Shown: positions 32,047-58,352 of the stretch, piece by piece | Position numbering within the stretch: position 1 is the first letter of the stretch | How the letters are laid out: every line of letters begins with the position of its first letter | Assembly (NCBI GenBank): GCA_965232515.1 | Contig: CBDDPY010000002.1 | Span: forward strand, 1,152,001 to 1,216,000 | DNA: 64,000 nt | Direction: 5' to 3' | From: Alphaproteobacteria bacterium | GTDB taxonomy: Bacteria > Pseudomonadota > Alphaproteobacteria > GCA-2731375 | Program-made: the position numbers and the translations under genes | The notes under the pieces: generated by a model | Database searches by the model: none | Told to the model about the DNA's origin: nothing | The model's input: only the letters and a program-made list of their open reading frames with translations

Positions 32047-32514
32047 ATGAACGCCTTTCATCTGCAGCCACCGACCCCACGCTTCGTTACGGATCGCTTC
32101 GAGCAGGCCTTGGCTTACTGGGAGTCGAAACGACAGGGGCGCCGAATGCCGTCCCGGCGCGATATCGATCCGCTCGAAATTCCATCGTTCCTGGCCAATG
32201 TCGTCCTGGTCGACGTCAGGCACGATCCGTTGGACTTCAGCTATCGACTGATTGGCACGTCCGTGGTGCAACGGATCGAGCGTGACTATACCGGCGTCCG
32301 GTTCATGGACATTCCGCACCAGCGGCCCGGCAGCCGGGTCTGGGACGCCGCCGTCCGGCTCGTGCATGAGAAACAGCCGTTCTACAGCGATATCCCCTAT
32401 GTCGGTCCGGACGCCTTCGTCGACGACTACCAGGATCTCTACATGCCGCTGTCGGACGACGGCGACACCGTCAATATGATCTTCGGGCTGATCGAGTTCG
32501 AAATGCGCCGCTGA
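32047..32514 (+). CDS. Stand-alone PAS-domain protein (PAS_5/DUF1457-like)
   Basis: LAYWESKR...MPSRRDIDP...FSYRLIGT...LYMPLSDDGDTVNMI. Confidence 0.85.
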   Translation: MNAFHLQPPTPRFVTDRFEQALAYWESKRQGRRMPSRRDIDPLEIPSFLANVVLVDVRHDPLDFSYRLIGTSVVQRIERDYTGVRFMDIPHQRPGSRVWDAAVRLVHEKQPFYSDIPYVGPDAFVDDYQDLYMPLSDDGDTVNMIFGLIEFEMRR

Positions 32515-32576
32515 CGGCCATTTTCGGCCACGGCGAAAGCCGTTGACATTCGGCCGGCTTGTGGCAGACAGACGCC

Positions 32577-33542: not shown

Positions 33543-33589
33543 GGCGCCGGAGACTCGCAGTGGCCCTTAGCGAACAGACTGGAGCGGCC

Positions 33590-34798
33590 GTGACGGCCGG
33601 ATCGATGCAATCGGGCTCGCCGGAGACGCCGGTCGTTTACATCGTCGGCCAATGCGACATGCGCGTCTGGCAGCTCTCGGCGCGCGAACGATTGGAGCGG
33701 TCCTTTCGAACGGCCGGCATCGACGACATCCGCCAAGCGCCCACGCCGTTGCCCACGTCGGGGCAGGTCATTCTCGTCCGCGCCGATCTGGTCTACGACC
33801 CGGCCATCCTCGCCGCGCTCGCGGAGACGCCGGATCTGCTGCTCGACGCCGCGGCCGACCAGGGCATATCGCACCCTGTGGCGGCACATGTCGCGGCAGT
33901 GGACGCCACGAGGGCCGCGGCCTTGCTGGATGGCGAGCGTCCACAAGACGACCTGCCTGCGGAAGTGCGTCGGCGAAGGGTCGATCAGCTCGACGGCGCG
34001 CATCGACGGGCGTTGCGCAAGCGCGAGACACCCTATGTCCTACAACTCGACCAGGCGGCGCTGCCACGGATCGAGTGGCGTTTGTTCCAGGGCGCCTACA
34101 AGGGCGTGACCGATTTCGTCACCAAGTATGTCTGGCCGGTACCGGCATTTCACATCACACGGGTCTGCACACGCCTGGGGCTCTCGCCCAATGCCGTCAC
34201 GACGGTCAGCCTCGTGTTGGTGATTGGCGCCATGATCGCGTTCTGGCAGGGACACTTCATGCTCGGCCTTGCCATGGCCTGGCCGATGACCTTCCTCGAC
34301 ACCGTCGACGGCAAGCTTGCCCGCGTCACCCTGACATCCAGCCGCTTCGGCAACGTCTTCGATCACGGCATCGATTTGGTGCATCCGCCGTTCTGGTATG
34401 TCGCCTGGGGCGTGGGGCTGGGCGCGGCAGGCTTGGCGCTGCCGGCCGAGACGCTTCTGCTCAGCCTGATCGTCGTTGTCGGCGGTTACGTCCTGGGCCG
34501 GCTGATCGAGGGCGCGTTCCTCCTGCTGCATGGCATCGAAATCCACGTCTGGCGGCGTCTGGATTCCCGGTTCCGGCTTGTTACCGCGCGCCGCAATCCG
34601 AATCTGGTGCTGCTGACGGCCGCGGCAACCGTCGGCCGCCCTGACATCGGCCTGCTGGCAATCGCCGCTTGGACTGCGCTGTCGCTACTGTTTCATATCG
34701 TTCGACTGGTCATGGCGACGGTCGCAAGGCGCCGGCATGGCGCGCTTCAGTCCTGGCTGTCCGAACCCGTCGGACCGTCTCTGGCGGCCCGAGCCTGA
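33590..34798 (+). CDS. CDP-alcohol phosphatidyltransferase family protein with N-terminal extension
   Basis: SPNAVT and DTVDGKLAR...GNVFDHGID signature; YKGVTDFVTKYVWP. Confidence 0.88.
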   Translation: MTAGSMQSGSPETPVVYIVGQCDMRVWQLSARERLERSFRTAGIDDIRQAPTPLPTSGQVILVRADLVYDPAILAALAETPDLLLDAAADQGISHPVAAHVAAVDATRAAALLDGERPQDDLPAEVRRRRVDQLDGAHRRALRKRETPYVLQLDQAALPRIEWRLFQGAYKGVTDFVTKYVWPVPAFHITRVCTRLGLSPNAVTTVSLVLVIGAMIAFWQGHFMLGLAMAWPMTFLDTVDGKLARVTLTSSRFGNVFDHGIDLVHPPFWYVAWGVGLGAAGLALPAETLLLSLIVVVGGYVLGRLIEGAFLLLHGIEIHVWRRLDSRFRLVTARRNPNLVLLTAAATVGRPDIGLLAIAAWTALSLLFHIVRLVMATVARRRHGALQSWLSEPVGPSLAARA

Positions 34799-34913
34799 CG
34801 TCGACGATCACCGAATGGCCACCGTCAGTTGATCGACGCAGTGTTGCGGAGCACGGTCGTTCGGTGATACCAACCGACGGTCGTTTCGTCTTGGGGGATT
34901 TCCGGAGATCGCG

Positions 34914-35687
34914 ATGAAGGCGCTGATACTTGCCGCCGGGCAAGGTAAACGCCTGCTGCCGTTGACCGAGGACCAGCCGAAAGCAATGCTGGACGTCGGC
35001 GGCAACAGCATGATCGGTTGGCAGGTCGACGCCCTGGTCGCGAAAGGCGTTGACGACATTGTCGTCGTCACCGGCTTCCGCTCCGAGGTCATCAGCCAAA
35101 AGCTGTCGGTGCTGCGTGAGCGCTATCGGCATTGCCGGATTCGGGCAGTGTTCAACACCTTTTACGGCGTCGCGGACAATCTGGTGAGCTGTTGGATGGC
35201 GCGTCACGAGATGAATGAGCCATTCCTGCTGCTGAATGGCGACACGCTCTTCCACGAGGACGTACTGCAGCGCCTGCTCGACAGTCCGGCGTCGCCGGTG
35301 ACCCTGGCGGTCGACCACAAGCCGCACTACGACGAAGACGACATGAAGATCCGGCTTGACGGCGCACAACTGCTCGAGATCGGCAAGACCTTGCCGGCCG
35401 ACTCCGTCGACGGCGAGTCGATCGGCATGCTGCTGTTCCGCGGCGACGGCCCGCGTCTTTTCGCCGAGGCGCTGGAGCAATGCATGCAGGCGACCGGCGC
35501 ACTGCGGCAATGGTATCTCTCCGTGATCGGCGCGCTGGCGACGACAACGAATGTCGCGACGCAGTCGATCAACGGCCTCGCCTGGTGCGAAATCGACTAT
35601 CCGCTGGACCTGGTCCGGGCCGAGCAGATGGTCTCGGGCTGGCGGAACGACGGCGACAGCGCGCCCATTTCGGTCGTCGCGTCTTAA
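34914..35687 (+). CDS. Nucleotidyltransferase (phosphocholine cytidylyltransferase/LicC-like family)
   Basis: LILAAGQGKRL..PK, LNGD, WCEIDYPLDL. Confidence 0.88.
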   Translation: MKALILAAGQGKRLLPLTEDQPKAMLDVGGNSMIGWQVDALVAKGVDDIVVVTGFRSEVISQKLSVLRERYRHCRIRAVFNTFYGVADNLVSCWMARHEMNEPFLLLNGDTLFHEDVLQRLLDSPASPVTLAVDHKPHYDEDDMKIRLDGAQLLEIGKTLPADSVDGESIGMLLFRGDGPRLFAEALEQCMQATGALRQWYLSVIGALATTTNVATQSINGLAWCEIDYPLDLVRAEQMVSGWRNDGDSAPISVVAS

Positions 35688-43172: not shown

Positions 43173-44243
43173 ATGGGCCAGGCCGTCTATTCCGCCCTGA
43201 AGCCGTTCGCCTATCCCGACCGGTTGGCCGCGCTCAGCCGCGACGACGGCTGGGCCGCGCCGGTGCATGTGCGGATCAAGCCGACCAACGTCTGCAACCA
43301 TGCCTGCTGGTTCTGCGCCTACCGCAATGACGGCGTCAGCCTGGGCAGCGGCATGACCGTGCGCGACAAGCTGCCGCGCGAGAAGATGCTGGAGATCGCC
43401 GACGACCTGATCGCCATGGGCGTCGAGGCCGTGACTTTCTCTGGCGGCGGCGAGCCGCTGATCTACCCGCATCTGGTCGAGGCCATCGAGCGCCTGGCCG
43501 CCGGCGGCATCAAGATCGGCGCGCTCACCAACGGCGCGCGGCTCAAGGGCAAGGTCGCGGACGCGCTGGCCGCGCATGCGAGCTGGCTCCGGGTGTCGAT
43601 CGACGGCTGGGACGGCGCCAGCTACGCCCGCTATCGCGGCGTCAAGGAAGACGCGTTCGAGGAGGTGATGGCGAACCTGACGGGCTTCGCCGATCGCGGC
43701 AGTGCGTGCGTGCTCGGCGCCAGCATCATCGTCGACCGGGACAATGCGTCGCACATCCATGAGCTCGCCGCCCGGCTCAAGGCCTGCGGCGTCAGCCATG
43801 CCAAGATCTCGCCCTGCATAACGTCGGACGACGGCGCCGAGACCAATGCCTACCACGCCGATATCTGGGACACGGTCCGGGCCGAGATCGAGAGAGCGCG
43901 GGCGCTCGACGACGACGGTTTCCGGGTGGTCGACCACTATCACGAGGCCGCCGTCGAGACGGCAAAGCCCTATGACCGCTGTCCGTTCGCACGGCTGCTA
44001 ACGGTGATCGGCGCGGACGCAAAGGTCTACTTTTGCCAGGACAAGGCCTATACCGAGAGTGGCTGCCTCGGCAGCATCGCCGACCGCCGTTTCGCCGACT
44101 TCTGGGCCGCGCCCGAGACGCGGGCGCGCCTCAACGCCCTCGACCCGTCGGCGACCTGCCGGCACCACTGCGTTGCCGACGCCAAGAACCGGCTGCTGTT
44201 GGATTACCTCTCCCTCGACCGGGAGCACATGGCGTTCGTCTAG
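43173..44243 (+). CDS. Radical SAM protein with SPASM/twitch-like C-terminus
   Basis: CNHACWFC, SGGGEPL; C-terminal CPF...IGADAKVYFC...CRHHC. Confidence 0.88.
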   Translation: MGQAVYSALKPFAYPDRLAALSRDDGWAAPVHVRIKPTNVCNHACWFCAYRNDGVSLGSGMTVRDKLPREKMLEIADDLIAMGVEAVTFSGGGEPLIYPHLVEAIERLAAGGIKIGALTNGARLKGKVADALAAHASWLRVSIDGWDGASYARYRGVKEDAFEEVMANLTGFADRGSACVLGASIIVDRDNASHIHELAARLKACGVSHAKISPCITSDDGAETNAYHADIWDTVRAEIERARALDDDGFRVVDHYHEAAVETAKPYDRCPFARLLTVIGADAKVYFCQDKAYTESGCLGSIADRRFADFWAAPETRARLNALDPSATCRHHCVADAKNRLLLDYLSLDREHMAFV

Positions 44244-47878: not shown

Positions 47879-48101
47879 GTTTTTCTCCGCGTTTCTTCGT
47901 TGTGAACCCCGCCTCACGGCGAAACGGCTCAACCGTTTTTGCGTCCGTTGTTAGCTTTCGATCTTAGCGTGTCGGATCGTTCACGGGAAATCTGCGGGAG
48001 CTGTTGTGGTTTCGTCTGGGGACGACAGACAACGATCTGGCCAATTCTCCGTGGGATGATTAGGCTCGGGCGCCCGGCAGGTAGCCCAGTTGACTGTGCG
48101 T

Positions 48102-49133
48102 ATGACGGATTCATCACAGAACCAGGACGAGCGTCCGATCCCGGTGACCCTGATCACGGGGTTTCTGGGCAGCGGCAAGACGACGTTGCTGTCGCATCTG
48201 CTGGCACAGACGGCGGCCGTGCCGACGGCGGTGCTGGTTAACGAGTTCGGCGAGATCGGGCTGGATCACGATCTGATCCGCCGGGGCGACGATCAGCTGA
48301 TCGAGTTGAGCAACGGCTGCATCTGCTGCGCCATGCAGGAGGACCTGGTGGCGACGCTGGGCGATCTGATGGCGCGGCGCGGGCAGGGCGACATCGCGGC
48401 GTTCCGGCGCGTGGCCATGGAAACCAGCGGGCTCGCCGACCCGGCGCCGATCGTGCAGACCCTGCTGACCTATCCGTATCTCGCCGAGACATTCCGTCTG
48501 GACGCGGTCATCACGACCGTCGATGCGGTGAATGGCGGCGCGACATTGGACAAGCATCCCGAGGCGGTCAAGCAGGCGGCGCTTGCCGACCGTCTGATCC
48601 TGACCAAGACCGACCTTGTCGACGACGATGCGGCCGACGCGCTGACGGCGCGCCTGCAGCGGCTCAACGCCGGCGCGCGTCGTCTGACCGTCGTCAATGG
48701 GACGGTCGCGCCCGAAGCGCTGTTCGACATCGGCGTGCACGATCCTGATGTGGCCGGCGCGCGGGTGCAGGACTGGCTCGGCGAGACCGGGCAGCATGCG
48801 CACGACCACAGTGTCGATATCGAAACCTTCTGCGTCGTGCGCGACCGGCCCGTGGCGCCTGCGGCTTTCGCTGACTTCCTGCGCCGGCTAAGCGTCGAGT
48901 GCGGCCCCGACCTGCTGCGGGTCAAGGGACTGGTCAACGTGGCCGGCTATCCCAACCGGCCGGCGGTGATCCATGGCGTGCAGCAGGCCTTCCACCCACC
49001 GGTCTGGCTGGATCGGTGGCCGAGCGCCGACCGGCGCACGCGGATCGTCGCCATCACGCGGGGCGCGGTAAAGGACTGGATCACCGACGCGCTGGAGGCT
49101 GTCGACGGTCCCGGCGCGCAGGCGGCCCAGTAG
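48102..49133 (+). CDS. CobW/COG0523 family metallochaperone GTPase
   Basis: GFLGSGKTT, NEFGEIG, GCICC, ETSGLADP, LLRVKG. Confidence 0.92.
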   Translation: MTDSSQNQDERPIPVTLITGFLGSGKTTLLSHLLAQTAAVPTAVLVNEFGEIGLDHDLIRRGDDQLIELSNGCICCAMQEDLVATLGDLMARRGQGDIAAFRRVAMETSGLADPAPIVQTLLTYPYLAETFRLDAVITTVDAVNGGATLDKHPEAVKQAALADRLILTKTDLVDDDAADALTARLQRLNAGARRLTVVNGTVAPEALFDIGVHDPDVAGARVQDWLGETGQHAHDHSVDIETFCVVRDRPVAPAAFADFLRRLSVECGPDLLRVKGLVNVAGYPNRPAVIHGVQQAFHPPVWLDRWPSADRRTRIVAITRGAVKDWITDALEAVDGPGAQAAQ

Positions 49134-49136: not shown

Positions 49137-50585
49137 ATGCGCATCCAACTCGAGCAACAGAGCGCGATCGTCGACCTGGCCGGCGGCGCCGAAATGAGCG
49201 CCGTCGCGCTCGAGGCGGCGGTGGCCACGCGAACGGCGCTGTTGCGCGCGCGCGGGCTCGGCCGGGGCGGGTACGCGGTGATCGCCCATGGCGGCACGCC
49301 GGCGTTTTTCGCCGATCTGCTGGCGGTCTGGCGGACCGGCGCCTGCGCGGCCTGCGTCAATCCGGGCCTCGCAGATGCGGAGCTCGCCAATGTTGTGCAC
49401 TTCCTGAAGCCCGCCGTGCTGCTGGTCGACGAGGCGTTCGCCGGGGACGGGCTCGACCTGCCGGTTCTGCGGGTCGGCGAACTGGCAGGCGCGACACCCG
49501 ACGACGACGCGGCGGATACGGCGCTGGACGACCCGGCGCTGATCCTGTTCACCTCGGGCACGACGGGCGCGCCGAAGGGGGTGGTGCACAGCTTCCGCTC
49601 GCTGCTGGCGCGGGTGGCGTTGAACCGGACGCATATCGGCGACGCGACGCTGCGAACGGCGCTGTGCGTGTTGCCGACGCATTTCGGCCATGGCCTGATC
49701 GGCAACTGCCTGACGCCGCTCTTGGCCGGCGGGCGGCTGCTGCTGTTCCAGAACATGGGGCTGCGCGAGATGGCGGGCCTGGGCGGGCTGATCGACGACC
49801 GCGGCGTGACGTTCATGAGCTCGGTACCGGCGTTCTGGAAGCTCGCCAGCAAGGCGGGCCGGCCGCCAGCGACGCGTACGCTCCGGCAAGTCAATATCGG
49901 CTCGGCGCCGCTGTCGGCGGAACTCTGGCGCACGGTGATGGACTGGTGCGGCACCGACCACGTGGTCAACATGTACGGCATCACCGAGACGGCGAACTGG
50001 GCGGCCGGCGCATCGGCGCGCGACGCCGCGCCCGAAGACGGTCTGGTCGGGACGATGTGGGGCGGCCGGGCCGCCGTGCTGGCGGACGACGGCGCGGTCT
50101 CGGCGGCGGGCGAGGGGGAGATCCTGCTGCAGACGCCGTCGCTGATGACGGGCTATCACCAGCGCCCGGATTTGAGCGGCGAGGTGCTGCGGGCCGGCTG
50201 GTTCCACACCGGCGATATCGGCGCGATCGACGACGGCGGCGTCATCCGCCTGTCGGGCCGGGCCAAGAGCGAGATCAACCGTGCCGGCATCAAGGTGCAC
50301 CCCGAGGAGGTCGACCTGCTGCTGGAACGGCATCCTGATGTGGCCGAGGCCTGCACGTTTGGCGTGCCCGACGCGATCAGCGGCGAGATCGTCGGCGCCG
50401 CGGTTTGCTTGGCGGGCGATGCCGCCGTCACGCCGGCCGACCTGCGGGCCTGGTGCCTGGAGCGCATGCGGCGCGAAGGCGTGCCGGAAAAGTGGTATGT
50501 GGTGGACCGGATTCCGAAGACCGACCGCGGCAAGATCAACCGCGAGGCGGTCCGGGCTTACGCGGAAGGTTTGAGTAAGACGTGA
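49137..50585 (+). CDS. Adenylate-forming (ANL) enzyme
   Basis: FTSGTTGAPKG, YGITE, TGD, PKTDRGKI. Confidence 0.9.
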   Translation: MRIQLEQQSAIVDLAGGAEMSAVALEAAVATRTALLRARGLGRGGYAVIAHGGTPAFFADLLAVWRTGACAACVNPGLADAELANVVHFLKPAVLLVDEAFAGDGLDLPVLRVGELAGATPDDDAADTALDDPALILFTSGTTGAPKGVVHSFRSLLARVALNRTHIGDATLRTALCVLPTHFGHGLIGNCLTPLLAGGRLLLFQNMGLREMAGLGGLIDDRGVTFMSSVPAFWKLASKAGRPPATRTLRQVNIGSAPLSAELWRTVMDWCGTDHVVNMYGITETANWAAGASARDAAPEDGLVGTMWGGRAAVLADDGAVSAAGEGEILLQTPSLMTGYHQRPDLSGEVLRAGWFHTGDIGAIDDGGVIRLSGRAKSEINRAGIKVHPEEVDLLLERHPDVAEACTFGVPDAISGEIVGAAVCLAGDAAVTPADLRAWCLERMRREGVPEKWYVVDRIPKTDRGKINREAVRAYAEGLSKT

Positions 50586-51160
50586 TGGACTGGCAGCCGG
50601 GCGAGCCGCTGACGCTTCCGACGCCGCGCTTCACCGTGCGGACGACGACGATCTACGACGTGACCGAGAGCATGGTCGCCTGGATGGCCGATCCCGAGGT
50701 GATGATCACGCTGAACTCGACCGGGCGCGAGATCACGCTTGCGCAGATGAAACGGCAGGTGAAGCAGTACGACAACCGGCGCAATTTTCATCTGAGCGTG
50801 TTCGACAAGCGCGACGACACCGCCATCGGCTTCTACACGGTGAACTGCAAGCCGTGGCACCGCACCGCCGAGACCGCGGTGGTGATCGGCAACCGCGATT
50901 ACTGGGGCCAGAACGTGGTCATCGAGACGCGGTCGGCGATCCTGGATTTCCTGTTCGACGTGATGGACCTGCACAAGGTGACCGGCCTGCCGTTCGCCCG
51001 CAACTTTCCGTCCGTCTTCAACTACAAGGCGCTCGGCTTCCGCTGCGAGGGCGTGTTCCGCGAGCATCTGCGCAGTGTCGAGGGCGGCCGGCTGGACCAG
51101 TGCCTGTTCGGTCTGCTGCGCGACGAGTGGCATGCGCACCGGGAGACCCTGCAGCGATGA
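50582..51160 (+). CDS. RimJ/RimL-type GNAT N-acyltransferase
   Basis: IGNRDYWGQ, DLHKV, NFPSVFNYKALGFRCEG; GTGA overlap with the upstream gene. Confidence 0.85.
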   Translation: MMDWQPGEPLTLPTPRFTVRTTTIYDVTESMVAWMADPEVMITLNSTGREITLAQMKRQVKQYDNRRNFHLSVFDKRDDTAIGFYTVNCKPWHRTAETAVVIGNRDYWGQNVVIETRSAILDFLFDVMDLHKVTGLPFARNFPSVFNYKALGFRCEGVFREHLRSVEGGRLDQCLFGLLRDEWHAHRETLQR

Positions 51161-51405
51161 CCGACCAGCACGCCGGCAACGGCTACGAGCGGGCCCGGAC
51201 GATCCTGGCCGAAGCGCTGAACCTGGAGACCGCGGCCATCGACGCCGAGGCCTCGATCATGACGCTCGAGGCCTGGGACAGCCTGGCGCATATGCGCCTG
51301 ATCGCCGCGGTCGAGGACGACCTGGCGGTGCAGCTGGAACCGGACGCCATCGTCTCGATCGCGAGCCTGGCCGACGTCGTCAAGATCATCGAGGATCACG
51401 GCTGA
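51157..51405 (+). CDS. Acyl carrier protein
   Basis: 82 aa, acidic, WDSLAHMRLI phosphopantetheine site; ATGA overlap with the GNAT gene. Confidence 0.88.
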   Translation: MTDQHAGNGYERARTILAEALNLETAAIDAEASIMTLEAWDSLAHMRLIAAVEDDLAVQLEPDAIVSIASLADVVKIIEDHG

Positions 51406-51451: not shown

Positions 51452-51727
51452 TGTCGGTGATCTTTACACTTCGCCCGCCGACGCCGTCCGCCAGACTAAT
51501 TTTGGCCGGCGGCGTTCCAGGCTTTTGAAAACAGTGGCTTATTAACGTTTGCTGTTGGTTTGCAGCAGGCGAGACGGCCACGAATTCGCTTCGTTTTGCG
51601 GTCGTTCGGCGTGGAATTCTGTCGGGATTTTTTACAAGGCGCCGAGCGACGTAAAGCGACGCCAACCGCACCTGCGCCGTAACCTGTTGATTTAATTGGC
51701 TAACATCAATCCGGTACAGTTCTTGCT
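51452..51727 (+). promoter_or_regulatory. Sigma-54 promoter cassette 1 (two enhancer boxes, IHF site, -24/-12)
   Basis: TGTCGG-N5-TTTACA at 51452 and 51620; TAACCTGTTGATT (51680-51692) is the reverse of IHF consensus WATCAA-N4-TTR; CCGGTACAGTTCTTGCT with GG-N10-GC at 51713/51725. Confidence 0.8.
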
Positions 51728-51832
51728 GAATGGACGGCAGCTTGGTTAACGGCGTCCCGGCAGGGACGACATGGATTCGATTTGGCGTCGTGGGGAGTCG
51801 CGTTGCCAGGGGAATTGGGGAGTAGTTCGACC

Positions 51833-52540
51833 ATGCAAGACAGCACAGTTACGCCGGCATCCACGGCATCGACCCATGTTTATCGCGTCGGCACGGCGAG
51901 TGCGCTGGCGCTCGGCGCCGGGTTGGCGGGCCTGAGCGAAGCCCAGGCGACCGTCATCCTGACCGATGTCAATGCCGAGGTCTCGGACGACGTCCAGGAC
52001 TTTGACGTGAACGACGACGGCATTGACGAACTGACGATCCAAGACCTTGACGGCGAGTTTGCGAGCGCGGAAGGGGGGCCGTCGTTGAAGGTGGCGTTCA
52101 CCTTCCTCGACCCGGACAAGCCGTTTTTTCTGACTCGGTTCGATTACGGCGACACGATCGGGGCCGCGACCTTTGGCCCCTCGAAGAAGGAAGCCTTCTT
52201 TTATAAGAAGTCTTTCTTCGTCAAGGGCAAAGGCAAGATCGACACTCAGGGTTTAAGCCCCTGGGAAGATGGCGAACGCGGCTTTTTCGGAATCTTCATG
52301 CCCGAGGGCACGATCAAGAAAGGCGGCTATTTCGGCTATGTCGAGGCACAGTTCTCGCCCGGCAACACCGTGACGATCTTCCGGATCGGCTTCGAGGACG
52401 AACTCAATACGCCGATCACCATCCGGAACGCCACGCAGGTGCCGGCGCCGGGCGGCATCGGCCTGCTGGCGCTGGGCGCGGCCGGCATCCTGGCCTACCG
52501 CCGGCGGCAGCGGAAGCAGGCGGTAACGGCCGCGGCTTGA
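51833..52540 (+). CDS. PEP-CTERM-like (VPAPG) sorted surface protein, paralog 1
   Basis: Signal peptide ending AQA; C-terminal VPAPG, hydrophobic helix, RRRQRK. Confidence 0.85.
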   Translation: MQDSTVTPASTASTHVYRVGTASALALGAGLAGLSEAQATVILTDVNAEVSDDVQDFDVNDDGIDELTIQDLDGEFASAEGGPSLKVAFTFLDPDKPFFLTRFDYGDTIGAATFGPSKKEAFFYKKSFFVKGKGKIDTQGLSPWEDGERGFFGIFMPEGTIKKGGYFGYVEAQFSPGNTVTIFRIGFEDELNTPITIRNATQVPAPGGIGLLALGAAGILAYRRRQRKQAVTAAA

Positions 52541-52543
52541 GCC

Positions 52544-52809
52544 TGTCGGCAAGCTTTACAAACCACCCGACGACGACGTCCGCCGGCCAAACGTTGGCCG
52601 GCGGCAATCTAGGTCGTTGAAAACAAAGGCTTATTAACTTTTCCTGTTGGCCTGCAACAAGTAAGACGGCCGCGATTTCGAACGATTTTGCGGCCGTTCG
52701 GGATGGAACCGTGTCGGGATATTTTACACCGGGCCGAGAGACGCGAGCCATGCCCGCGTCGTAACCCATTGATTTAATTGAACTACGTCAAGCTGGTACG
52801 GATTTTGCG
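52544..52809 (+). promoter_or_regulatory. Sigma-54 promoter cassette 2 (duplicate of cassette 1)
   Basis: TGTCGG-N5-TTTACA at 52544 and 52712; TAACCCATTGATT (52762-52774); CTGGTACGGATTTTGCG with GG-N10-GC at 52795/52807. Confidence 0.8.
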
Positions 52810-52914
52810 GAGAATTCGGCAGCTTGGTTAACGATGTCCGAGCCGGCATACATCGGATTCGAATTGGCGTCGCGTTCCGTCGCGTTGCCAGCGCAAGGGG
52901 GTAAACTTTCGACC

Positions 52915-53598
52915 ATGCAGGATAGCAACACCACGACGGCAGCCACGACATCGGCCAATCTCTACCGCGCAGGAACGGCGGGCGCGCTGGCAATCGGCGC
53001 CGGCCTGGTCGGATTGAGCGAGGCCCAGGCGGACGTCATTCTGACCGACTTCAATGTCACGATTACCGACGACTTCGAATTGTTCGACGTGAACGATGAC
53101 GGCGAGAACGAACTGGCCATCACAGACGAAACGGGCGTGTATTCCTCTGCGAAGGGATTTAGCGGAACGTTCTTTGCCGTCGATTCTTTCGGTGCACCCA
53201 AGGCGGTTTTTCTGACACGGTTCTATTACGGCGATACGATCGATAAGAGCAGCTTCTCCCCCGCCGGTAGAAGTGGCCTTTTCTATAGTTCGTTTCCGGA
53301 TTTTGCAGGTAAAAGCCCCTGGGAAGACGGCGAGCGCGGATTCTTCGGTTTTGCGGTTCCCTCGGACCTGGATCAAGAGGGCGTCTATTACGGTTATGTC
53401 GAGGCGCAGTTCTCGCCGGGCAACACGGTGACAATCTTCCGGATCGGTTTTGAGGACGAGCTCGGTACGCCGATCACCATCCGCGACCCCAACGCTGTGC
53501 CGGCGCCGGGCGGCATCGGCCTGCTGGCGCTGGGCGCGGCCGGCACGCTGGCCTACCGCCGGCGGCGGCGGAAGCAGGCCGCCGCGGCCACGGCCTGA
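52915..53598 (+). CDS. PEP-CTERM-like (VPAPG) sorted surface protein, paralog 2
   Basis: MQDSNTTTA...SEAQA; VPAPGGIGLLALGAAGTLAYRRRRRK. Confidence 0.85.
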   Translation: MQDSNTTTAATTSANLYRAGTAGALAIGAGLVGLSEAQADVILTDFNVTITDDFELFDVNDDGENELAITDETGVYSSAKGFSGTFFAVDSFGAPKAVFLTRFYYGDTIDKSSFSPAGRSGLFYSSFPDFAGKSPWEDGERGFFGFAVPSDLDQEGVYYGYVEAQFSPGNTVTIFRIGFEDELGTPITIRDPNAVPAPGGIGLLALGAAGTLAYRRRRRKQAAAATA

Positions 53599-53734
53599 GC
53601 CTGTCTGTTCGGCGCGGGCGCGTCTTGCCGAGCACAATCGTGCTTGGCCAACACGGTCCCAATCGGGACGAAGCGGGTTCGAATTGGCGTCGCGGCTGAC
53701 CGCGTTGCCAGCGTAACAGGGGAAGCTTTCGACC

Positions 53735-54406
53735 ATGCAGGACAGCAAGACCACCACGACGGCCACGGCATCGGCCGATCTCTACCGCGCGGGCGCGGCG
53801 GGCGCGCTGGCGATCGGCGCCGGCCTGGCCGGATTGAGCGACGCCCAGGCGGCCGTCATCCTGACCGACGTCAACGCCACGATCACCGACGATTTCCAGA
53901 CGTTCGACGTAAACGATGACGAGGTGGACGAACTGGGCATCGGCGACAACACAGGCGCGTTTTCGTTTGCGAAGGGACTTGGCGGGACGTTCGTTGGCGT
54001 CGACTTTTTCGGTCTGCCGAAGCCGTTTTTCCTGACGCAATTCGATTACGGCGATACGGTCTCGAAGGAAACCCTTGTCGTCGGCACTATGAATGGCTTC
54101 TTCTACAAGTCGTCTAAGGCAGGCAAAAGCCCCTGGGAGGACGGCGAACGCGGCTTCTTCGGATTTGCGGTTCCGTCCGACATCGATGGACTAGGCGTCT
54201 ATTACGGTTATGTCGAGGCGCAGTTTTCGCCCGGCAATACGGTGAACATCTTCCGGATCGGCTTCGAGAACGAGATCAATACGCCGATCACCATCCGCGA
54301 CCCCAACGCGGTGCCGGCGCCGGGCGGCATCGGCCTGCTGGCGCTGGGCGCGGCCGGCACGTTGGCCTACCGCCGGCGGCAACGCAAGAAGGCGGCAGCG
54401 GCCTGA
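53735..54406 (+). CDS. PEP-CTERM-like (VPAPG) sorted surface protein, paralog 3
   Basis: MQDSKTTTT...SDAQA; VPAPGGIGLLALGAAGTLAYRRRQRKK. Confidence 0.85.
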   Translation: MQDSKTTTTATASADLYRAGAAGALAIGAGLAGLSDAQAAVILTDVNATITDDFQTFDVNDDEVDELGIGDNTGAFSFAKGLGGTFVGVDFFGLPKPFFLTQFDYGDTVSKETLVVGTMNGFFYKSSKAGKSPWEDGERGFFGFAVPSDIDGLGVYYGYVEAQFSPGNTVNIFRIGFENEINTPITIRDPNAVPAPGGIGLLALGAAGTLAYRRRQRKKAAAA

Positions 54407-54502
54407 TTCCGTTCGGCGCACGCCACCCAAGACACAGATACGCCGTCGCCGCAAACCGCGGCGGCGGCTTGACGTAGTTCCGGACGCTTCCCTGCTGGCG
54501 GC

Positions 54503-57106
54503 ATGAGCGAACGACTGACCAAACGGGTATTGCTGCTCGGCTGGGACGGCGCGGACTGGAAGGTGATCCAGGCGCTGCTCGACGCCGGGCGGATGCCGAA
54601 CCTGGAGCGGCTGATCGACCGCGGCGTGATGGGCAACCTGGCGACGCTGCAGCCGATCCTGTCGCCGATGCTGTGGACCTCGATCGCCACCGGCAAGCAT
54701 GCCGACCAGCACGGCATCCACGGCTTCATCGAGCCGCGGCCCGACGGCGCCGGCGTGCGGCCGGTGACCAGCACCTCGGTCCAGGCCGAGCCGCTGTGGA
54801 GCATTCTCGAAAGCCAGGGCCTGAAGAGCGCCGTTGTCGGCTGGTTCGCGACTTATCCGGCCGACCGGGTCGCCGGCATCGCGGTCAGCGACCTCTACTG
54901 CAACGCCCGCGGCGCCAGCTTCGACGACTGGCCGCTGCCCGACCGCATGGTCAAGCCGGCGCGCCTGACGGACGTGATGGCCGACCTGCGGGTGCATCCG
55001 AGCGAAATCGAGGCCGGGCAGGTGCTGCCGTTCATTCCGCGGGCGCCGGAGATCGACCAGGAGGCGGACGAGCGGCTGGCCGCCTTCGCCCGGTTCATGG
55101 CCCGCTGCGCCACCGTGCACGGCGCCGGCACCTATGTGGCCGAGCACGAGGACTGGGACCTGCTGGCGGTCTACTACGAAACCGTCGACCGGATGTCGCA
55201 CTGGTTCATGGAGTACCACCCGCCGAAGATGCGGCACGTTATCGAGCAGGATTTCGAGATCTATCGAGAGGTGATCGACGGCATCTACCAGTTCCACGAC
55301 CAGACGCTGGGCCGCTACATGGAGCTGGTCGGGCCGGAGACGACGATCGTGATTTGCTCCGACCACGGCTTCTACAGCGACCATCTGCGCCCGCCGGTCT
55401 CGGCCAACATGCAGACCGGCAATCCGGTGCTGTGGCACCGCGACCTCGGCGTGTTCGTCGCCAGCGGTCCGGGCGTCAAGCGGGACGAGCTGGTGTTCGG
55501 CGCCTCGATCCTGGACATCGCGCCGACCGTCTTGACCCTGCTCGGTCTGCCGGTCGCGCGGGACATGGAGGGCCGGGCGCTGACCCAGATCCTGGCCAAC
55601 GATGTCCAGCCGGAACGGATCGGCAGCTATGGCGCGCCCGACGCGGCACCGGCGACCTACGAGGACCCGGGCGAGGCGCAGGCGGCGCTGACGCAGCTCG
55701 CCGAGCTCGGCTATATCGAGACGGTCTCGGACGACGCCGAGCTGGCGGTCGAGCGGGCGCTGATCCAGCAGCATCTCAATCTCGCCGACGTGCACCTGAA
55801 CAAGCGCCAGTTCAAACGGGCGATCGAGCACCTGGAGGCGTGGCGCAAGCTGGCGCCGGAAAACCGGCGCGCGCTTCTGAAGCTGGCGCAGTGTTATCTC
55901 GGGCTCGGCGAATTGGACGAGGCCCGCGCGATCCTCGACAAGCTCTTGGGCCGGGACCGCGACGGGCCGACCGCCAACCTGCTTTACGGCCAGCTGCTGT
56001 TTCGCGAGGGCAAGGACGACGACGCGCTGGCGCATTTCGAGCGCGCGGCCACGTCCGGCGCCAACAACCGCAACCTGCAGGCCCAGATCGGCCAGGTGCA
56101 CTTACGCGGGCAGCGCTGGCCGGAGGCGGACGCGGCGTTTCGCCGGGCGCTCGAGATCGACGCCGATTTCGCCCGCGCGCATCATGGGCTCGGCGTCGCG
56201 CTCTATGGCCAGGGCCACTACGAGGACGCGGTGAACACGCTGCTGCGGTCGATCGGCCTGCTTTATCACCAGCCGCTGGCGCATTACCACCTCGGCATCG
56301 CGCTGGCCGCGAGCGGCCGGGTCGGCAACGCGGTCGAGGCGCTGAACAACGCGCTGAAGCTGGCGCCGAACCTGGCCGTGGCCCAGAAGGCGCTGGCGCA
56401 GCTCGACCGCGACACGCGCAAGGCGGTGAAGGCCGAGATCCTGCGCGTGCAGACCATGCTCGACGAACGCGACGCCGAGGCCGCCGATGCGCCGGCGGCA
56501 GCCGAGAAGGCCGCGGTTTCGGACGAGGCGGCGATCACCGTGGTCTCAGGCCTGCCGCGTTCCGGGACCTCGATGATGATGCAGATGCTGGCCGCCGGCG
56601 GCATGCCGGTGCTGACCGACGATCAGCGCGCCGCCGACGCCGACAATCCCAAGGGCTATTTCGAGCTGGAGGCGGTGAAGCGGCTCGAGACCGAGACGAC
56701 CTGGCTGGCGGACGGCGTCGGCAAGGCCGTCAAGATCATCTATTCGCTGCTCTACCACCTGCCGGCGGACCGCGCCTACAAGGTGCTGTTCATGCGCCGC
56801 GACATCGACGAGGTGCTGGCCTCGCAGGCCGACATGCTGGCGCGCGCCGACAAGGCGGGCGCGGCCGAGCCGGCGAAGCTCGCCGACGCCTTCCGCCAGC
56901 AACTGGCGCGCATCGAGGCCTGGCTCGCCGGGCAGCCGAACATCGACGTGCTTTATGTCGATCACCGCGACGCGGTCGACGACCCGGCCGCAACGGCAGC
57001 GCGGGTAGCTGCGTTTCTCGACGCCGGTGTGGACGCGGCCGCCATGGCCGCCGCGGTGGACGGCACGCTCTATCGCCACCGCGGAGATGCGTCGTCGGCC
57101 CCTTAA
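54503..57106 (+). CDS. Alkaline phosphatase superfamily (type I phosphodiesterase-like) / TPR / sulfotransferase fusion protein
   Basis: N-terminal GWDGADW, SPMLWTSIATG, DRMSH, SDHG; central TPR-like helical repeats; C-terminal SGLPRSGTS (5'-PSB) and RRDIDEVLASQ (3'-PB); no signal peptide. Confidence 0.85.
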   Translation: MSERLTKRVLLLGWDGADWKVIQALLDAGRMPNLERLIDRGVMGNLATLQPILSPMLWTSIATGKHADQHGIHGFIEPRPDGAGVRPVTSTSVQAEPLWSILESQGLKSAVVGWFATYPADRVAGIAVSDLYCNARGASFDDWPLPDRMVKPARLTDVMADLRVHPSEIEAGQVLPFIPRAPEIDQEADERLAAFARFMARCATVHGAGTYVAEHEDWDLLAVYYETVDRMSHWFMEYHPPKMRHVIEQDFEIYREVIDGIYQFHDQTLGRYMELVGPETTIVICSDHGFYSDHLRPPVSANMQTGNPVLWHRDLGVFVASGPGVKRDELVFGASILDIAPTVLTLLGLPVARDMEGRALTQILANDVQPERIGSYGAPDAAPATYEDPGEAQAALTQLAELGYIETVSDDAELAVERALIQQHLNLADVHLNKRQFKRAIEHLEAWRKLAPENRRALLKLAQCYLGLGELDEARAILDKLLGRDRDGPTANLLYGQLLFREGKDDDALAHFERAATSGANNRNLQAQIGQVHLRGQRWPEADAAFRRALEIDADFARAHHGLGVALYGQGHYEDAVNTLLRSIGLLYHQPLAHYHLGIALAASGRVGNAVEALNNALKLAPNLAVAQKALAQLDRDTRKAVKAEILRVQTMLDERDAEAADAPAAAEKAAVSDEAAITVVSGLPRSGTSMMMQMLAAGGMPVLTDDQRAADADNPKGYFELEAVKRLETETTWLADGVGKAVKIIYSLLYHLPADRAYKVLFMRRDIDEVLASQADMLARADKAGAAEPAKLADAFRQQLARIEAWLAGQPNIDVLYVDHRDAVDDPAATAARVAAFLDAGVDAAAMAAAVDGTLYRHRGDASSAP

Positions 57107-57177
57107 ATTTCGGTGTCGACATCGGCAACCGATGGCCGATCCTTCGAGACGCGCCCGATCGGGCGCTCCTCAGGATG

Positions 57178-58352
57178 GAGACCTTTGCACGGTTTTGGGA
57201 AGCGTGATTCACTGACGGTATAGGGGCTGTCGGTGAGGGTTTGAGATGTCTCGCAAGCGTGTTGGTCAGCTGGGGTTTGAGGACGCGGTTGTCGAGGCGC
57301 GGCTTGGCGCTCGGTTCGATCGGCTGTCGAAGATCAATGATCTTGTGGACTGGCGGCCGTTTGAGGCGCTGCTGGAGGGGCTTTATCCGTCGCGTCGGGG
57401 CGAGCCGTCTTATCCGGCGCTGATCATGTTCAAGGTGCTGCTGTTGCAGCGCTGGTACAATCTGTCGGATCCGATGATGGAGGAGGCGTTGGCGGACCGG
57501 ATCTCGTTCCGTCGGTTTGTCGGTCTGAGCCTGAGCGATCCGGTTCCCGATCACTCGACGATCCACCGTTTCCGGGACCGTCTACGCGGGGCGGCGCGTC
57601 TTGAGGCGCTGATGGGGGAGTTGTCGCGTCAGCTCGAAGCGCACCAGGTCGTGCTCAAACAAGGCACGTTGATTGATGCCAGCCTGGTGAGCAGCGCGGC
57701 GCGGCGGCCTCGGATCAAGGAAGGCCGGACCAGCCGGACCGATCCGGATGCGCGCTTTGGCACCAACAACGAGCGCCGGCGCTATAGCTTTGGCTACAAG
57801 CTGCATGTGGCCGTGGATCAGGGCTCGGCGCTGATCCGCGGCCTGTTTCTGACGCCGGCCAATCGCCAGGAGATCGACTTTGCCGCCGATTTGGTTCAGG
57901 GCGACGAGCAGGCCGTCTATGCCGACCGTGGTTATGACGCCCGGCGCCTGCGCGATCATCTGGCGGCGCTCGGCATCGCCGACGGGGTCATGCGCCATGC
58001 CCGTAAAGGCAGGCCGCTCAACGCCGAAGAGACCGCCCGGAACCACCGGCTGGTGGCCCGGCGCCGACCGGTCGAGAAGATCTTCGGCACCCTCAAACGA
58101 AGCTACCGCCTCAGCCGCCTGCCGCATTTCAGCCAAGCACGCAACGAAGTCACCGTCACGCTCGCCTGTTTCGCCTACAACCTGCGACGCCTCGCCGTCC
58201 TCTGCGCAACTTGAGGCCGCTCGATATCGACCTCATCGACAGCAAACAGGCCTCAAGCCGGTCAGCGGCTCGAAAACAGGCGCGATCGCCGCTAACAACC
58301 CAGCGCCAAGCTCGAACATAGCGACAAACAACACCTACCGTGCAAAGGTCTC
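57178..58352 (+). mobile_element. IS5-family insertion sequence (1175 bp)
   Basis: Terminal inverted repeats GAGACCTTTGCACGG / CCGTGCAAAGGTCTC; flanking direct repeat CAGGATG (57171-57177 and 58353-58359). Confidence 0.92.
57246..58214 (+). CDS. IS5 family DDE transposase
   Basis: LQRWYNLSD, PDHSTIHRFR, IDAS, GYKLHVAVD, ADRGY, RRPVEKIFGTLK. Confidence 0.95.
   Translation: MSRKRVGQLGFEDAVVEARLGARFDRLSKINDLVDWRPFEALLEGLYPSRRGEPSYPALIMFKVLLLQRWYNLSDPMMEEALADRISFRRFVGLSLSDPVPDHSTIHRFRDRLRGAARLEALMGELSRQLEAHQVVLKQGTLIDASLVSSAARRPRIKEGRTSRTDPDARFGTNNERRRYSFGYKLHVAVDQGSALIRGLFLTPANRQEIDFAADLVQGDEQAVYADRGYDARRLRDHLAALGIADGVMRHARKGRPLNAEETARNHRLVARRRPVEKIFGTLKRSYRLSRLPHFSQARNEVTVTLACFAYNLRRLAVLCAT

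Follow-up and report, generated by a model that had tools for sequence, protein, structure and literature searches.

Within the window, the 64,000-nucleotide stretch of DNA analyzed here as a whole, three tandem genes for similar small proteins with signal-like N-termini and sorting-type C-termini stand directly upstream of a gene for a large multidomain enzyme, raising the question of whether the two form a dedicated cassette of clients and modifier and, if so, which part of the enzyme would hold its clients and what it would do to them.

Gene organization and leader elements

51712..51727, + strand: sigma-54-like -24/-12 element matching the consensus at 8 of 11 positions and lying 121 nt ahead of the start codon of paralog 1; putative promoter
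51781..51810, + strand: conserved inverted repeat/hairpin in the paralog 1 leader, read from the sequence
51833-52540, + strand: paralog 1, 235 aa, with an N-terminal signal-like region, a beta-sandwich core, and a PEP-CTERM-type tail
52794..52809, + strand: sigma-54-like -24/-12 element matching the consensus at 9 of 11 positions and lying 121 nt ahead of the start codon of paralog 2; putative promoter
about 52864-52891, + strand: inverted repeat copy in the paralog 2 leader, read from the sequence
52915-53598, + strand: paralog 2, 227 aa
about 53684-53711, + strand: inverted repeat copy in the paralog 3 leader, read from the sequence
53735-54406, + strand: paralog 3, 223 aa
54311..54403, + strand: paralog 3 tail, residues 193-223, with a P-x-P motif, a helix with L202, G205, and R213 invariant in the alignment, then a basic cluster
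54503-57106, + strand: enzyme gene, 867 aa, AlkP/NPP-like, then TPR, then PAPS-sulfotransferase
54503..55702, + strand: AlkP/NPP-like domain, residues 1-400; PF01663 Phosphodiest at 97.8 bits over residues 9-290
55730..56482, + strand: TPR array, about residues 410-660; TPR_2, TPR_16, TPR_19, and other TPR families over their cut-offs, with matches across about 420-680
56516..57106, + strand: minimal PAPS-type sulfotransferase domain, about residues 672-867; PF13469 Sulfotransfer_3 at 37.0 bits against a cut-off of 27

The initial annotation had described three tandem PEP-CTERM-like paralogs of 223-235 aa followed, 96 bp downstream, by an 867 aa three-domain enzyme, and this description held: the listed motifs are all present in the + strand translations, and the enzyme matched PF01663, TPR families, and PF13469, with no signal peptide by inspection. 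Each paralog translation has the residues A-Q-A closing an N-terminal hydrophobic stretch and then a DVNDD loop, carries a SPWEDGERGFFG block and a Y[FY]GYVEAQFSPGNTV block, and ends in a VPAPG-hydrophobic-polyArg tail. All four genes lie on the + strand, with intergenic gaps of 374, 136, and 96 nt along paralogs 1, 2, and 3 and the enzyme. The three paralogs, which are the only copies of the family in the source genome, share 64-75% pairwise identity; by region, identity is 78-94% in the tail, 67-82% in the N-terminal signal-like region, where the family has a conserved motif, and 54-68% in the core. The AF2 model of paralog 3 (mean pLDDT 74.7) comprises a helix at residues 19-33, strands across 42-177, and a tail helix at 198-222.

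The leaders of paralogs 1 and 2 share 75% identity across 366 nt, and the duplicated leader is reduced to about its last 60 nt before paralog 3. Scored against the sigma-54 -24/-12 consensus with its 11 scored positions, the + strand of the whole window has seven sites of the kind before paralog 2, and the elements in the leaders of paralogs 1 and 2 lie at the identical offset of 121 nt from their start codons. The hairpin from the repeat forms in the RNA folds of the paralog 1 and paralog 2 leaders (-16.5 and -16.3 kcal/mol), while the minimum free energy fold of the paralog 3 leader (-21.9 kcal/mol) leaves the repeat arms unpaired. Consensus scans for sigma-70 promoters (1 found vs 1.0 expected) and terminators (6 found vs 5.5 expected) gave chance-level counts. 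Transcription of paralogs 2 and 3 and of the enzyme probably starts from a sigma-54-type promoter. PEP-CTERM genes with upstream sigma-54-like elements are likewise reported in the consulted portion of Haft et al. 2006 (PMC1569441), and the title of PMC9850573 names the RpoN dependence of a PEP-CTERM gene.

The catalytic fold starts with its first strand right at the enzyme's N-terminus, and the protein, judged by inspection to be without a signal peptide, would be cytoplasmic. Residues D15, S54, D229, H233, D287, and H288 of the AlkP-like domain (model pLDDT 85.2) and P685, R686, G688, T689, S690, R766, and S774 of the sulfotransferase domain are invariant across homologs, and with metal ligands, nucleophile, and PAPS loop all invariant, the enzyme appears to be catalytically competent.

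Recurrence of the enzyme and the protein family across phyla

At E<=1e-30 the enzyme N-domain family comprises 5,374 representative clusters. Among 583 pattern stretches there were 554 relatives, and gene neighbourhoods were sampled at the 80 best enzyme loci. Enrichment of the protein family beside the enzyme across genomes, on which the initial annotation had staked its claim of a dedicated cassette, turned out to be strong: one or more paralog-family genes are present in 55 of the 80 loci, in at least seven phyla, and of the 107 family genes found there, 104 are encoded on the same strand as the enzyme, none of these farther than 7 kb from it. The same-strand adjacency is seen in Acidobacteriota, Planctomycetota, Verrucomicrobiota, Pseudomonadota, Bacteroidota, and Chlorobiota, and in a deltaproteobacterial MAG. 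All-against-all BLAST of the flank ORFs gave the paralog family as the sole neighbour common to several phyla, with no recurrent glycosyltransferase, polysaccharide-export, or lipid genes found in the enzyme loci. A motif seeded on the window tail only gave 49 six-frame matches, 39 of them in the same-strand upstream 1.6 kb, a region making up 4.2% of the searched space.

No family gene was found in the flanks of the other 25 loci, three of which have less than 300 bp of upstream sequence. All 10 enzyme-bearing genomes checked nevertheless have the family; it is dispersed, with up to 29 copies, in five genomes without an enzyme-adjacent member, and 5 of 15 copies adjoin the enzyme in one Bacteroidota genome. 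Up to seven diversified family genes stand in tandem per enzyme gene. In the window's lineage, too, enzyme and family go together, the enzyme and full-length family matches both being found in the source genome and in none of the 30 relatives searched. The parts are also rearranged: family genes lie between an AlkP-TPR gene and a sulfotransferase gene in a split form (L004), a helix-plus-sulfotransferase ORF precedes an AlkP-TPR ORF at another locus (L081), and the helix and AlkP domain share one frame with no stop between them at a third (L069). Comparison of these sequences strongly supports the paralogs and the enzyme being a dedicated, conserved two-part cassette, and the recurrence of the pairing in many bacterial phyla indicates an undescribed system in which an enzyme would grip a sorting tail.

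The sorting tail and its predicted docking site

The tails of paralogs 1, 2, and 3 pass the NCBIfam cut-off of 16 for TIGR02595 (17.5, 19.1, and 18.5 bits) and fall below the Pfam cut-off of 20.7 for PF07589 (19.1, 17.6, and 17.7 bits). The source genome has 49 PEP-CTERM matches, and when its tails were ranked with models built from foreign enzyme-adjacent tails only, the window tails took ranks 1-3 of 49, the paralog 1 tail coming first. The enzyme-adjacent tail of a second genome (G042) ranked first of 14 under the same kind of model, and those of a third (G044) scored 34.3 and 32.7 bits vs 16.7 for the top of the 22 others. By these sequence models the enzyme-adjacent tails, first in all three genomes ranked, are a distinct PEP-CTERM subtype. 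As for the exosortase and PAPS-synthesis genes that had been suggested as a check, the source genome encodes a single exosortase, 5.4 Mb from the cassette, and an APS kinase (for PAPS).

Homologous cores with other sorting tails, a further suggested check, were found beside the enzyme as well. Bacteroidota family members located directly downstream of the enzyme end in a T9SS type A domain (TIGR04183 above cut-off in four of the five tested), and these cargo proteins are without the tail helix. Directly upstream of the enzyme there is, in Bacteroidota, a mini-ORF of 60-100 aa encoding a tail-like helix only. Such mini-ORFs were found at about 22 loci; differences among them number 1308, 708, and 2273 by codon position, a pattern by which they are under selection at the protein level. 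An exosortase was not found in four of five mini-ORF Bacteroidota genomes searched, these being MAGs and thus incomplete evidence of absence.

The proposal that the TPR array contacts the clients was not borne out by the complex model, built with paralog residues 168-223 only, in which the tail helix instead docks on the AlkP-like domain, at its helical insert (helices 153-215 and 248-275). The model scored 0.70 against 0.01 for the best control, a result also compatible with a generally sticky groove, the controls being without other hydrophobic tail helices; among solved complexes 116 of 157 attain this mark, as do 2 of 215 mismatched pairs, counts that hold only roughly here because our own alignments were used. 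At least 54% of contacts agreed between runs, with low partner pLDDT (52-54; at least 51). The predicted docking segment is 198-213 of paralog 3 (contacts at 198-200, 202-207, 209-210, and 213), and in the model G205 and A206, both invariant in the tail, pack onto a conserved enzyme patch of H206, A208, A/G209, and T210. Taken together, the predicted docking residues vary more (mean column entropy 1.76) than the remainder of the insert (1.31).

Candidate modification and comparison with known systems

The enzyme probably modifies the paralogs before export. The reading that we prefer, tentatively and at somewhat under an even chance, is that of a widespread, undescribed module in which tail-docked, secreted beta-sandwich clients are covalently modified by a cytoplasmic AlkP-TPR-sulfotransferase enzyme before export. 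The groove in the helical insert would capture the C-terminal tail helix of the new pre-protein, and the tethered client would be modified in the cytoplasm, with the sulfotransferase domain adding sulfate from PAPS and the AlkP-like domain, its bimetal site and Ser nucleophile intact, carrying out phosphoester chemistry, with either the client or the PAP by-product as its target. The client would then be exported and its tail processed by the genome's single exosortase, as can be expected from the part consulted of the PEP-CTERM/exosortase description (PMC1569441). The same enzyme would serve T9SS-sorted family members in Bacteroidota, the docking helix being supplied in trans by the mini-protein. 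Because the helix occurs in trans there and fused to the sulfotransferase at L081, it could be a docking or assembly tag beyond a substrate mark.

A less likely alternative is that the substrate is a lipid-linked glycan, exopolysaccharide precursor, or small molecule, which the enzyme would sulfate or dephosphorylate, that the tail-like helix serves only to anchor, assemble, or activate the enzyme, and that the beta-sandwich proteins are co-functional partners, e.g., surface binders of the sulfated product. The helix would here come from a mini-protein, a sulfotransferase subunit, or the stub or tail of surface proteins. The mini-protein does supply the helix in trans where the cargo is without it, and the fusion at L081 would tether the sulfotransferase subunit to the AlkP-TPR subunit. 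Inspection of the alignment found no hydroxyl residue conserved family-wide as an acceptor, the window paralogs having Phe where the AYE motif of the family has Tyr, and Gly where the family has Ser/Thr following the P-x-P motif. The nearest structural neighbours of the AlkP-like domain (NPP, phosphonate monoester hydrolases, and sulfatases; Foldseek match to Xac NPP, E 1.4e-11) are small-molecule/glycan esterases, the profile of the sulfotransferase domain (about 190 aa) best matches small-molecule SULT1-type structures (top E 4.7e-6) and matches TPSTs only in the P-loop, and the paralog core weakly resembles HmuY-type ligand-binding all-beta proteins (Z 6.2-7.5, middling). On the other hand, the protein family, and no glycan or lipid gene, is the sole conserved neighbour, as many as seven diversified tandem genes per enzyme fit a set of substrates better than they fit an anchor, and in most phyla the cargo itself retains the helix subtype.

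Binding of peptide clients is a common role of TPR arrays, the array is retained in every full-length enzyme homolog, and the conserved motif of the N-terminal signal-like region could be a second recognition site; the array could accordingly be the module that recognizes the paralogs in the cytoplasm, with the sulfotransferase and/or phosphoesterase modifying them and the tail serving exosortase sorting only. This is improbable given that, in the model built with paralog residues 168-223, the AlkP-like domain takes every confident contact, all within its residues 158-271, and the TPR takes none, and that the specificity of the tail subtype would go unexplained. That there is no direct functional link at all, the paralogs being ordinary exosortase cargo and the enzyme unrelated and co-acquired, strikes us as very improbable: an IS5 transposase gene begins 139 nt past the enzyme end, neither the full-length enzyme (0/30) nor full-length paralog-family matches were found in 30 relatives in the window's lineage, only the source genome having the latter, and 25 of 80 enzyme loci have no adjacent family gene, but same-strand adjacency is repeated in at least seven phyla, fusions and split forms interleave the parts, and the tail subtype tracks the enzyme.

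Our literature search found no published description of the cassette. The PEP-CTERM/exosortase system is alike in its C-terminal P-x-P motif, hydrophobic helix, and basic cluster, and peptide-client binding by TPR arrays is raised there for PrsT; the words "sulfotransferase" and "phosphodiesterase" do not appear in the text of that paper (PMC1569441). Unlike in that system, the tail subtype of the cassette follows a cytoplasmic enzyme rather than the distant exosortase, and its helix also exists as a stand-alone mini-ORF. PepA (NCBIfam NF033554) resembles the paralogs in being small, secreted, and of the PEP-CTERM type; partner-family proteins from other genomes match it weakly over their own C-terminal half (18-34 bits against a cut-off of 80), the window paralogs do not match at E<=0.01, and the searches made found no enzyme of the cassette type linked to it.

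The raxX and raxST genes of Xanthomonas oryzae are neighbours. In outline RaxX/RaxST resembles the cassette, a bacterial sulfotransferase modifying a secreted protein or peptide (PMC4646787 and PMC4892823, as far as the portions consulted go). RaxST is, however, a single-domain tyrosine sulfotransferase and RaxX a short peptide, whereas the cassette has a three-domain enzyme and folded clients of 220-290 aa without a conserved tyrosine. Xac NPP (2gsn), phosphonoacetate hydrolase (3t02), and phosphonate monoester hydrolase (2w8s) share with the AlkP-like domain the core fold, bimetal ligands, and Ser/Thr nucleophile position, at a remote level only (best profile E 1.5e-6, TM 0.40-0.55), and unlike these relatives the cassette enzyme would be cytoplasmic, has a large helical insert predicted to hold a peptide helix, and is fused to TPR and sulfotransferase domains. 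Leader- or follower-guided modification of RiPPs and the capture of C-terminal hydrophobic helices by tail-anchor factors are analogies only. With RiPPs the cassette would have in common a variable core accompanied by a conserved recognition peptide, the use of one enzyme for multiple tandem substrates, and a possible supply of the recognition peptide in trans, but its clients are folded proteins with sorting signals rather than short peptides.

Three surface-protein paralogs and a three-domain enzyme

The initial annotation of this region described three tandem paralogs with a shared set of motifs, followed by a three-domain enzyme, and the ORFs, their translations, and the domain scores all confirm this description. 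The features are as follows:

51833-52540, + strand: paralog 1, 235 aa
52915-53598, + strand: paralog 2, 227 aa
53735-54406, + strand: paralog 3, 223 aa
54503-57106, + strand: enzyme, 867 aa, 96 nt after paralog 3
51781-51810, ~52864-52891, and ~53684-53711, + strand: conserved inverted repeat of the TTGGCGTCG..CGCGTTGCCAG type, 20-55 nt before each paralog start codon

The paralogs are 64-75% identical to one another and share, from N to C, a polar N-terminus, an Ala/Gly-rich hydrophobic stretch ending in A-Q-A (recognised by inspection as signal-like), an acidic DVNDD loop, the conserved blocks listed in the initial annotation, and a tail which in the translations consists of V-P-A-P-G, a hydrophobic helix, and an Arg-rich end, with P-A-P where P-E-P is usual. 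The tails of paralogs 1-3 pass the TIGR02595 cut-off of 16 (17.5, 19.1, and 18.5) and fall below the Pfam threshold of 20.7 for PF07589 (19.1, 17.6, and 17.7). The PEP-CTERM motif sits at the extreme C-terminus and is followed by a helix (residues 198-222 in the AF2 model of paralog 3) and a basic cluster. The paralog AF2 model (pLDDT 74.7) has a beta-sandwich (strands at 42-177) flanked by an N-terminal helix and the tail helix. A Foldseek search of the PDB with this model returned nothing at E<=0.001 (best 0.077), and a wider search by structure reached only middling Z values (DUF4466 protein, 7.5; HmuY-type proteins, 6.2-7.0); we leave the fold family unclaimed. The three copies are the only members of the family in their own genome, and a word-indexed search with the paralog retrieved only six clusters, two of them the window's own.

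The enzyme begins with a type I phosphodiesterase/NPP domain (PF01663, 97.8 bits against a cut-off of 23), continues with a TPR array, and ends in a sulfotransferase domain (PF13469 Sulfotransfer_3, 37.0 bits against a cut-off of 27). All three domains are well conserved. There is no N-terminal hydrophobic segment, and the catalytic fold begins at residue 8. The N-domain residues D15, S54, D229, H233, D287, and H288 are invariant among the homologues aligned and are those that a bimetal site with a nucleophile would require in this superfamily; in the alignment, S54 falls on the nucleophile position of PhnA. Residues P685, R686, G688, T689, and S690, together with R766 and S774, are invariant in the sulfotransferase domain (24 and 27 sequences) and correspond, respectively, to the PAPS 5'-phosphosulfate loop and the 3'-phosphate-binding site of the superfamily.

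The N-domain is a remote member of the alkaline-phosphatase superfamily. Its predicted structure (pLDDT 85.2, pTM 0.88) was placed by Foldseek nearest to the Xanthomonas (Xac) NPP (E 1.4e-11, TM 0.40-0.47), then to phosphonate monoester hydrolases, ENPPs, and sulfatases, and a profile search put phosphonoacetate hydrolase nearest (E 1.5e-6). Single-sequence searches of the PDB were uninformative, reaching only E 0.003 to phosphonoacetate hydrolase for the N-domain and nothing meaningful for the sulfotransferase domain. NCBIfam has no specific model for the enzyme, and its only matches were to TPR models, far under their cut-offs.

The leaders of paralogs 1 and 2 (~370 nt) are 75% identical, and paralog 3 keeps approximately the last 60 nt. 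Sigma-54-like -24/-12 elements lie 121 nt before the start codons of paralog 1 (8 of 11 consensus positions) and paralog 2 (9 of 11), with none found ahead of paralog 3 or the enzyme; the + strand of the whole window contains seven such sites at >=9/11. This pattern would fit transcription that continues from paralog 2 through paralog 3 to the enzyme. Haft et al. (PMC1569441) report a sigma-54 motif upstream of PEP-CTERM genes, and the elements in the window agree with that motif. A scan for sigma-70 promoters and terminators gave results at chance level. The predicted RNA folds of the leader stretches of paralogs 1, 2, and 3 have energies of -16.5, -16.3, and -21.9 kcal/mol; the inverted-repeat hairpin forms in the first two, and in the MFE structure of the third the repeat arms are unpaired. 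The inverted repeat may act as a hairpin in the leader or as an operator.

Two RNA libraries from other studies (X4 and X6) contain contigs of relatives of both the paralogs and the enzyme, with 90-99% identity. We have kept these contigs out of the evidence, since the presence of a contig in an RNA library does not demonstrate transcription. In the X6 contig, paralog 3 ends and the sequence resumes 6 nt ahead of the enzyme start, with 89 nt skipped (window 54407-54497); this shows adjacency in a relative in which the spacer is almost absent, and not transcription.

A module conserved across phyla

The genome carrying the window (G000:C2:1152001-1216000) is 7.39 Mb in size with 65.5% G+C and contains 49 PEP-CTERM matches. 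The initial annotation had read the tails as exosortase-processed and the enzyme as PAPS-dependent, and the genome provides for both: it has one exosortase (PF09721, 229 bits, G000:C2:6573161-6573904), 5.4 Mb from the window, and an APS kinase for PAPS synthesis (PF01583, 218 bits, C2:2941939-2942382). The enzyme is single-copy here and was found in none of 30 relatives (one sharing its genus, 17 its family, and 12 its class), and no full-length match to the paralog family was found among them. Together, these two results point to a cassette that is sporadic in the lineage and whose two parts occur together.

Several other features of the genome were recorded. An IS5-family transposase gene (window 57246-58214, + strand; NF033581, 251 bits) starts 139 nt past the enzyme, and many public contigs break or diverge at ~57139-57177, as expected of the edge of a repeated element. 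An open frame of 799 aa, 4.3 kb ahead of the window, carries a PEP-CTERM tail (G000:C2:1147506-1147670) that is the genome's best tail-only match to the family profile and ranks 7 of 49 (27.6 bits) with the enzyme-adjacent tail model described below. Genes for a flagellin, a PAS protein, a metallophosphoesterase, a CDP-alcohol phosphatidyltransferase-like protein, and a nucleotidyltransferase at window 31034-35687 (+ strand) may make up a small cluster for modifying head groups or glycans, with no relation to the cassette.

Outside this lineage the enzyme is widespread. A word-indexed search listed 120 homologues from many phyla, 40-94% identical, the large majority covering the whole enzyme and the rest 55-76% of it, with source annotations of "alkaline phosphatase family protein" or similar. 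With a profile of the N-domain, 5,374 representative clusters were matched at E<=1e-30 among 1.84 billion proteins, and the domain was N-terminal in 150 of the 150 best matches.

We compared the 10-kb flanks of the best 80 of 554 enzyme loci, taken from one-per-species genomes. In many loci, a PEP-CTERM model built from own-genome tails only picks out ORFs of 230-290 aa with such a tail immediately ahead of the enzyme and co-oriented with it, and tandem family copies are sometimes 3-7 in number. A motif seeded on the window tail alone gave 49 six-frame matches, 39 of them on the enzyme's strand within the 1.6 kb ahead of it, a space making up 4.2% of that searched; five of the ten remaining matches are further tandem copies. 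An all-against-all BLAST of flank ORFs of >=100 aa yielded only one recurrent neighbour, one connected family with 73 ORFs spread over 38 loci and with 71 of the 73 on the enzyme's strand. An HMM of the family found at least one member in 55 of the 80 loci, for a total of 107 genes, 104 of which are on the enzyme's strand and all 104 within 7 kb; 22 rows of the HMM's alignment were taken from these 80 loci and match by construction. The enrichment of the family next to enzyme homologues, which the idea of a dedicated substrate-plus-modifier cassette implied, is therefore borne out.

The 25 loci with no family member are mostly from Acidobacteriota, and three of them have <300 bp of upstream sequence. 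In five genomes with no adjacent member, the family is dispersed (9, 3, 29, 3, and 1 matches); in five cassette genomes, the copies beside the enzyme number 1 of 1, 2 of 2, 2 of 3, 7 of 8, and 5 of 15. A module of enzyme, protein family, and tail-like helix is conserved and spans many phyla.

The genes upstream of the cassette in the window are these:

49137-51405, + strand, immediately ahead of the cassette: AMP-binding acyl ligase (482 aa), GNAT acyltransferase (192 aa), and small acyl-carrier protein (PF00550), with overlapping or abutting ends
48090-49133: CobW-type GTPase, upstream of the acyl ligase cluster
43173-44243: radical SAM/SPASM gene, upstream of the acyl ligase cluster

The acyl-CoA ligase, GNAT, and ACP genes were considered as parts of the system and rejected, as nothing similar recurs in the 80 loci. 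Neither the CobW-type GTPase nor the radical SAM/SPASM gene is recurrent near the enzyme in other loci.

The tail helix and its predicted docking on the enzyme

When the tails of the window's own genome were scored with a model of enzyme-adjacent tails from foreign genomes, the three window tails ranked 1-3 of 49 (44.1, 39.2, and 37.6 bits; next 31.9), a result that counts as one event because the three are near-identical. With a generic model they ranked only 27th, 32nd, and 35th among the genome's PEP-CTERM tails. Leave-one-out models were applied to two further genomes, taking only the best 30 of the 44 (G042) and 73 (G044) generic matches. In G042, the adjacent tail ranked first of 14 (42.7 against 33.4 bits); in G044, where the model still contained a kin sequence, the adjacent tails scored 34.3 and 32.7 bits, and the highest of the 22 others 16.7. 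By these rankings, tails next to the enzyme form a special subtype that goes with it.

The family core is not tied to one sorting system. Homologous cores with other sorting tails, which the initial annotation proposed to look for, were found: in Bacteroidota loci, the enzyme is immediately followed by one to four family members in tandem that end in a T9SS type A sorting domain, with four of five members tested over cut-off for TIGR04183 and likewise four of five for PF18962. Among long family members tested from other phyla, five of seven pass the Pfam PEP-CTERM cut-off. In those Bacteroidota loci, and in one Chlorobiota locus, the enzyme is immediately preceded by a mini-ORF of 60-100 aa comprising little beyond a PEP-CTERM-like helix (G-S-L-G-L-L-A-L-G ... 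W-R) and a hydrophilic C-terminal extension, with no signal-like segment. Differences among 17 mini-ORFs number 1308, 708, and 2273 at codon positions 1, 2, and 3, and on this pattern the mini-ORFs are coding. Exosortase was not seen in four of five Bacteroidota genomes with this arrangement; as these are MAGs, its absence is not established.

Other loci carry the parts in split or fused form. In L081 (2298-5306), a 280-aa ORF joins a tail-like helix at its N-terminus to a sulfotransferase (PF13469, 41.1 bits), with an AlkP-TPR ORF directly after it, and in L069 (3-1637) the helix and the AlkP-like domain share one stop-free frame on a contig whose 5' end is open. Several Acidobacteriota encode the sulfotransferase in a gene of its own, downstream; the Acidobacteriaceae locus L004 (10001-14975) has an AlkP-TPR gene, two family genes with variant tails, and a sulfotransferase gene, with another family gene upstream. 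In the deltaproteobacterial MAG locus L077, the upstream neighbour keeps the family core including the AYE-type motif, and a C-terminal domain of ~100 aa replaces the PEP-CTERM/T9SS tail. A second such locus, L076, gave no family match, and its upstream C-terminal region resembles that of L077 by eye only. The L081, L069, and split architectures give independent support for a physical link.

We predicted the complex of the full enzyme with paralog 3 residues 168-223, using two alignments made in this analysis (A1 and A3). The complex score was 0.70 (runs of 0.70, 0.71, and 0.70) against 0.01 for the best control, giving a tool verdict of "supports binding", a mark that 116 of 157 solved complexes attain, as do 2 of 215 mismatched pairs. 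Contact agreement between runs was >=54% and partner pLDDT >=51. The initial annotation had suggested that the TPR array binds the paralogs. The prediction retains a confident contact between enzyme and paralog, made by the tail, and moves it off the TPR: all confident contacts pair tail residues 198-213 with enzyme residues 158-176, 199-215, and 264-271, which are predicted to sit in helices of an insert in the AlkP-like domain. The invariant small tail residues G205 and A206 are predicted to meet a conserved enzyme patch of H206, A208, A/G209, and T210. We do not count conservation of the docking residues as support, since as a group they vary more than the remainder of the insert does (entropy 1.76 against 1.31). 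Additionally, the controls held no other hydrophobic helix, so the site could be a generally sticky groove. Docking of the helix on the AlkP-like domain is supported by the model and by the gene fusions.

Interpretation and comparison with known systems

The inference we draw from these results is that the enzyme would capture its clients by the tail before membrane insertion and modify them, sulfating them with PAPS as donor and acting on them through phosphoester chemistry; where the cargo uses T9SS, the mini-protein would provide the helix. A broader reading, which we hold to be less likely than not, gives the tail helix a second role as a cytoplasmic docking tag, carried in cis on the cargo, supplied in trans by the mini-protein, or fused to the enzyme's own sulfotransferase subunit; this very large enzyme family would read the tag and then sulfate or phospho-modify secreted beta-sandwich proteins prior to export. 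The main rival to a simple substrate model makes the helix a tag for assembly or anchoring, with a substrate other than the protein. This rival draws its standing from three observations. No conserved acceptor residue was found: no tyrosine is invariant in the family alignment A3, and the AYE/AYD motif of the family is GFE in the window paralogs; the Bacteroidota cargo has no helix; and in L081 the helix tethers an enzyme subunit.

Should the docking-tag reading hold, it would define a pre-export protein-modification pathway of bacteria, present in at least seven phyla and serving two unrelated sorting systems, exosortase and T9SS. The role of PEP-CTERM proteins and what is done to them are still largely obscure, though these proteins are abundant in soil, water, and sludge bacteria, and the cassette offers a concrete testable pair, or in Bacteroidota a trio. 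It would also give a first function to a family annotated only as "alkaline phosphatase family protein", and it suggests that reading of a sorting signal can also take place in the cytoplasm. A literature search of limited coverage found no published description of the cassette or of the enzyme architecture.

On the side of the protein family, no Pfam or NCBIfam model covers the core or the mini-ORFs, and the nearest likeness is a sub-threshold one to PepA (NF033554): foreign members score 18-34 bits against the model cut-off of 80 bits, and the window paralogs have no match at E<=0.01. As to the sulfotransferase domain, a TPST-like nature was considered and found little backing. Its profile (A2) matches SULT1-type chains, best 2zpt at E 4.7e-6; TPST chains, the protein-tyrosine sulfotransferases compared, match only at positions 6-26, the P-loop (E 0.002-0.003). 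Characterised NPPs are secreted or periplasmic; in contrast, the enzyme has no hydrophobic segment at its N-terminus, and all of the 150 best representatives likewise have the domain at or near their first residues. If the clients are indeed sulfated or phospho-modified, bacterial protein sulfation would be widespread beyond the single RaxX/RaxST case, with a bearing on surface chemistry, flocculation, and biofilm matrices.
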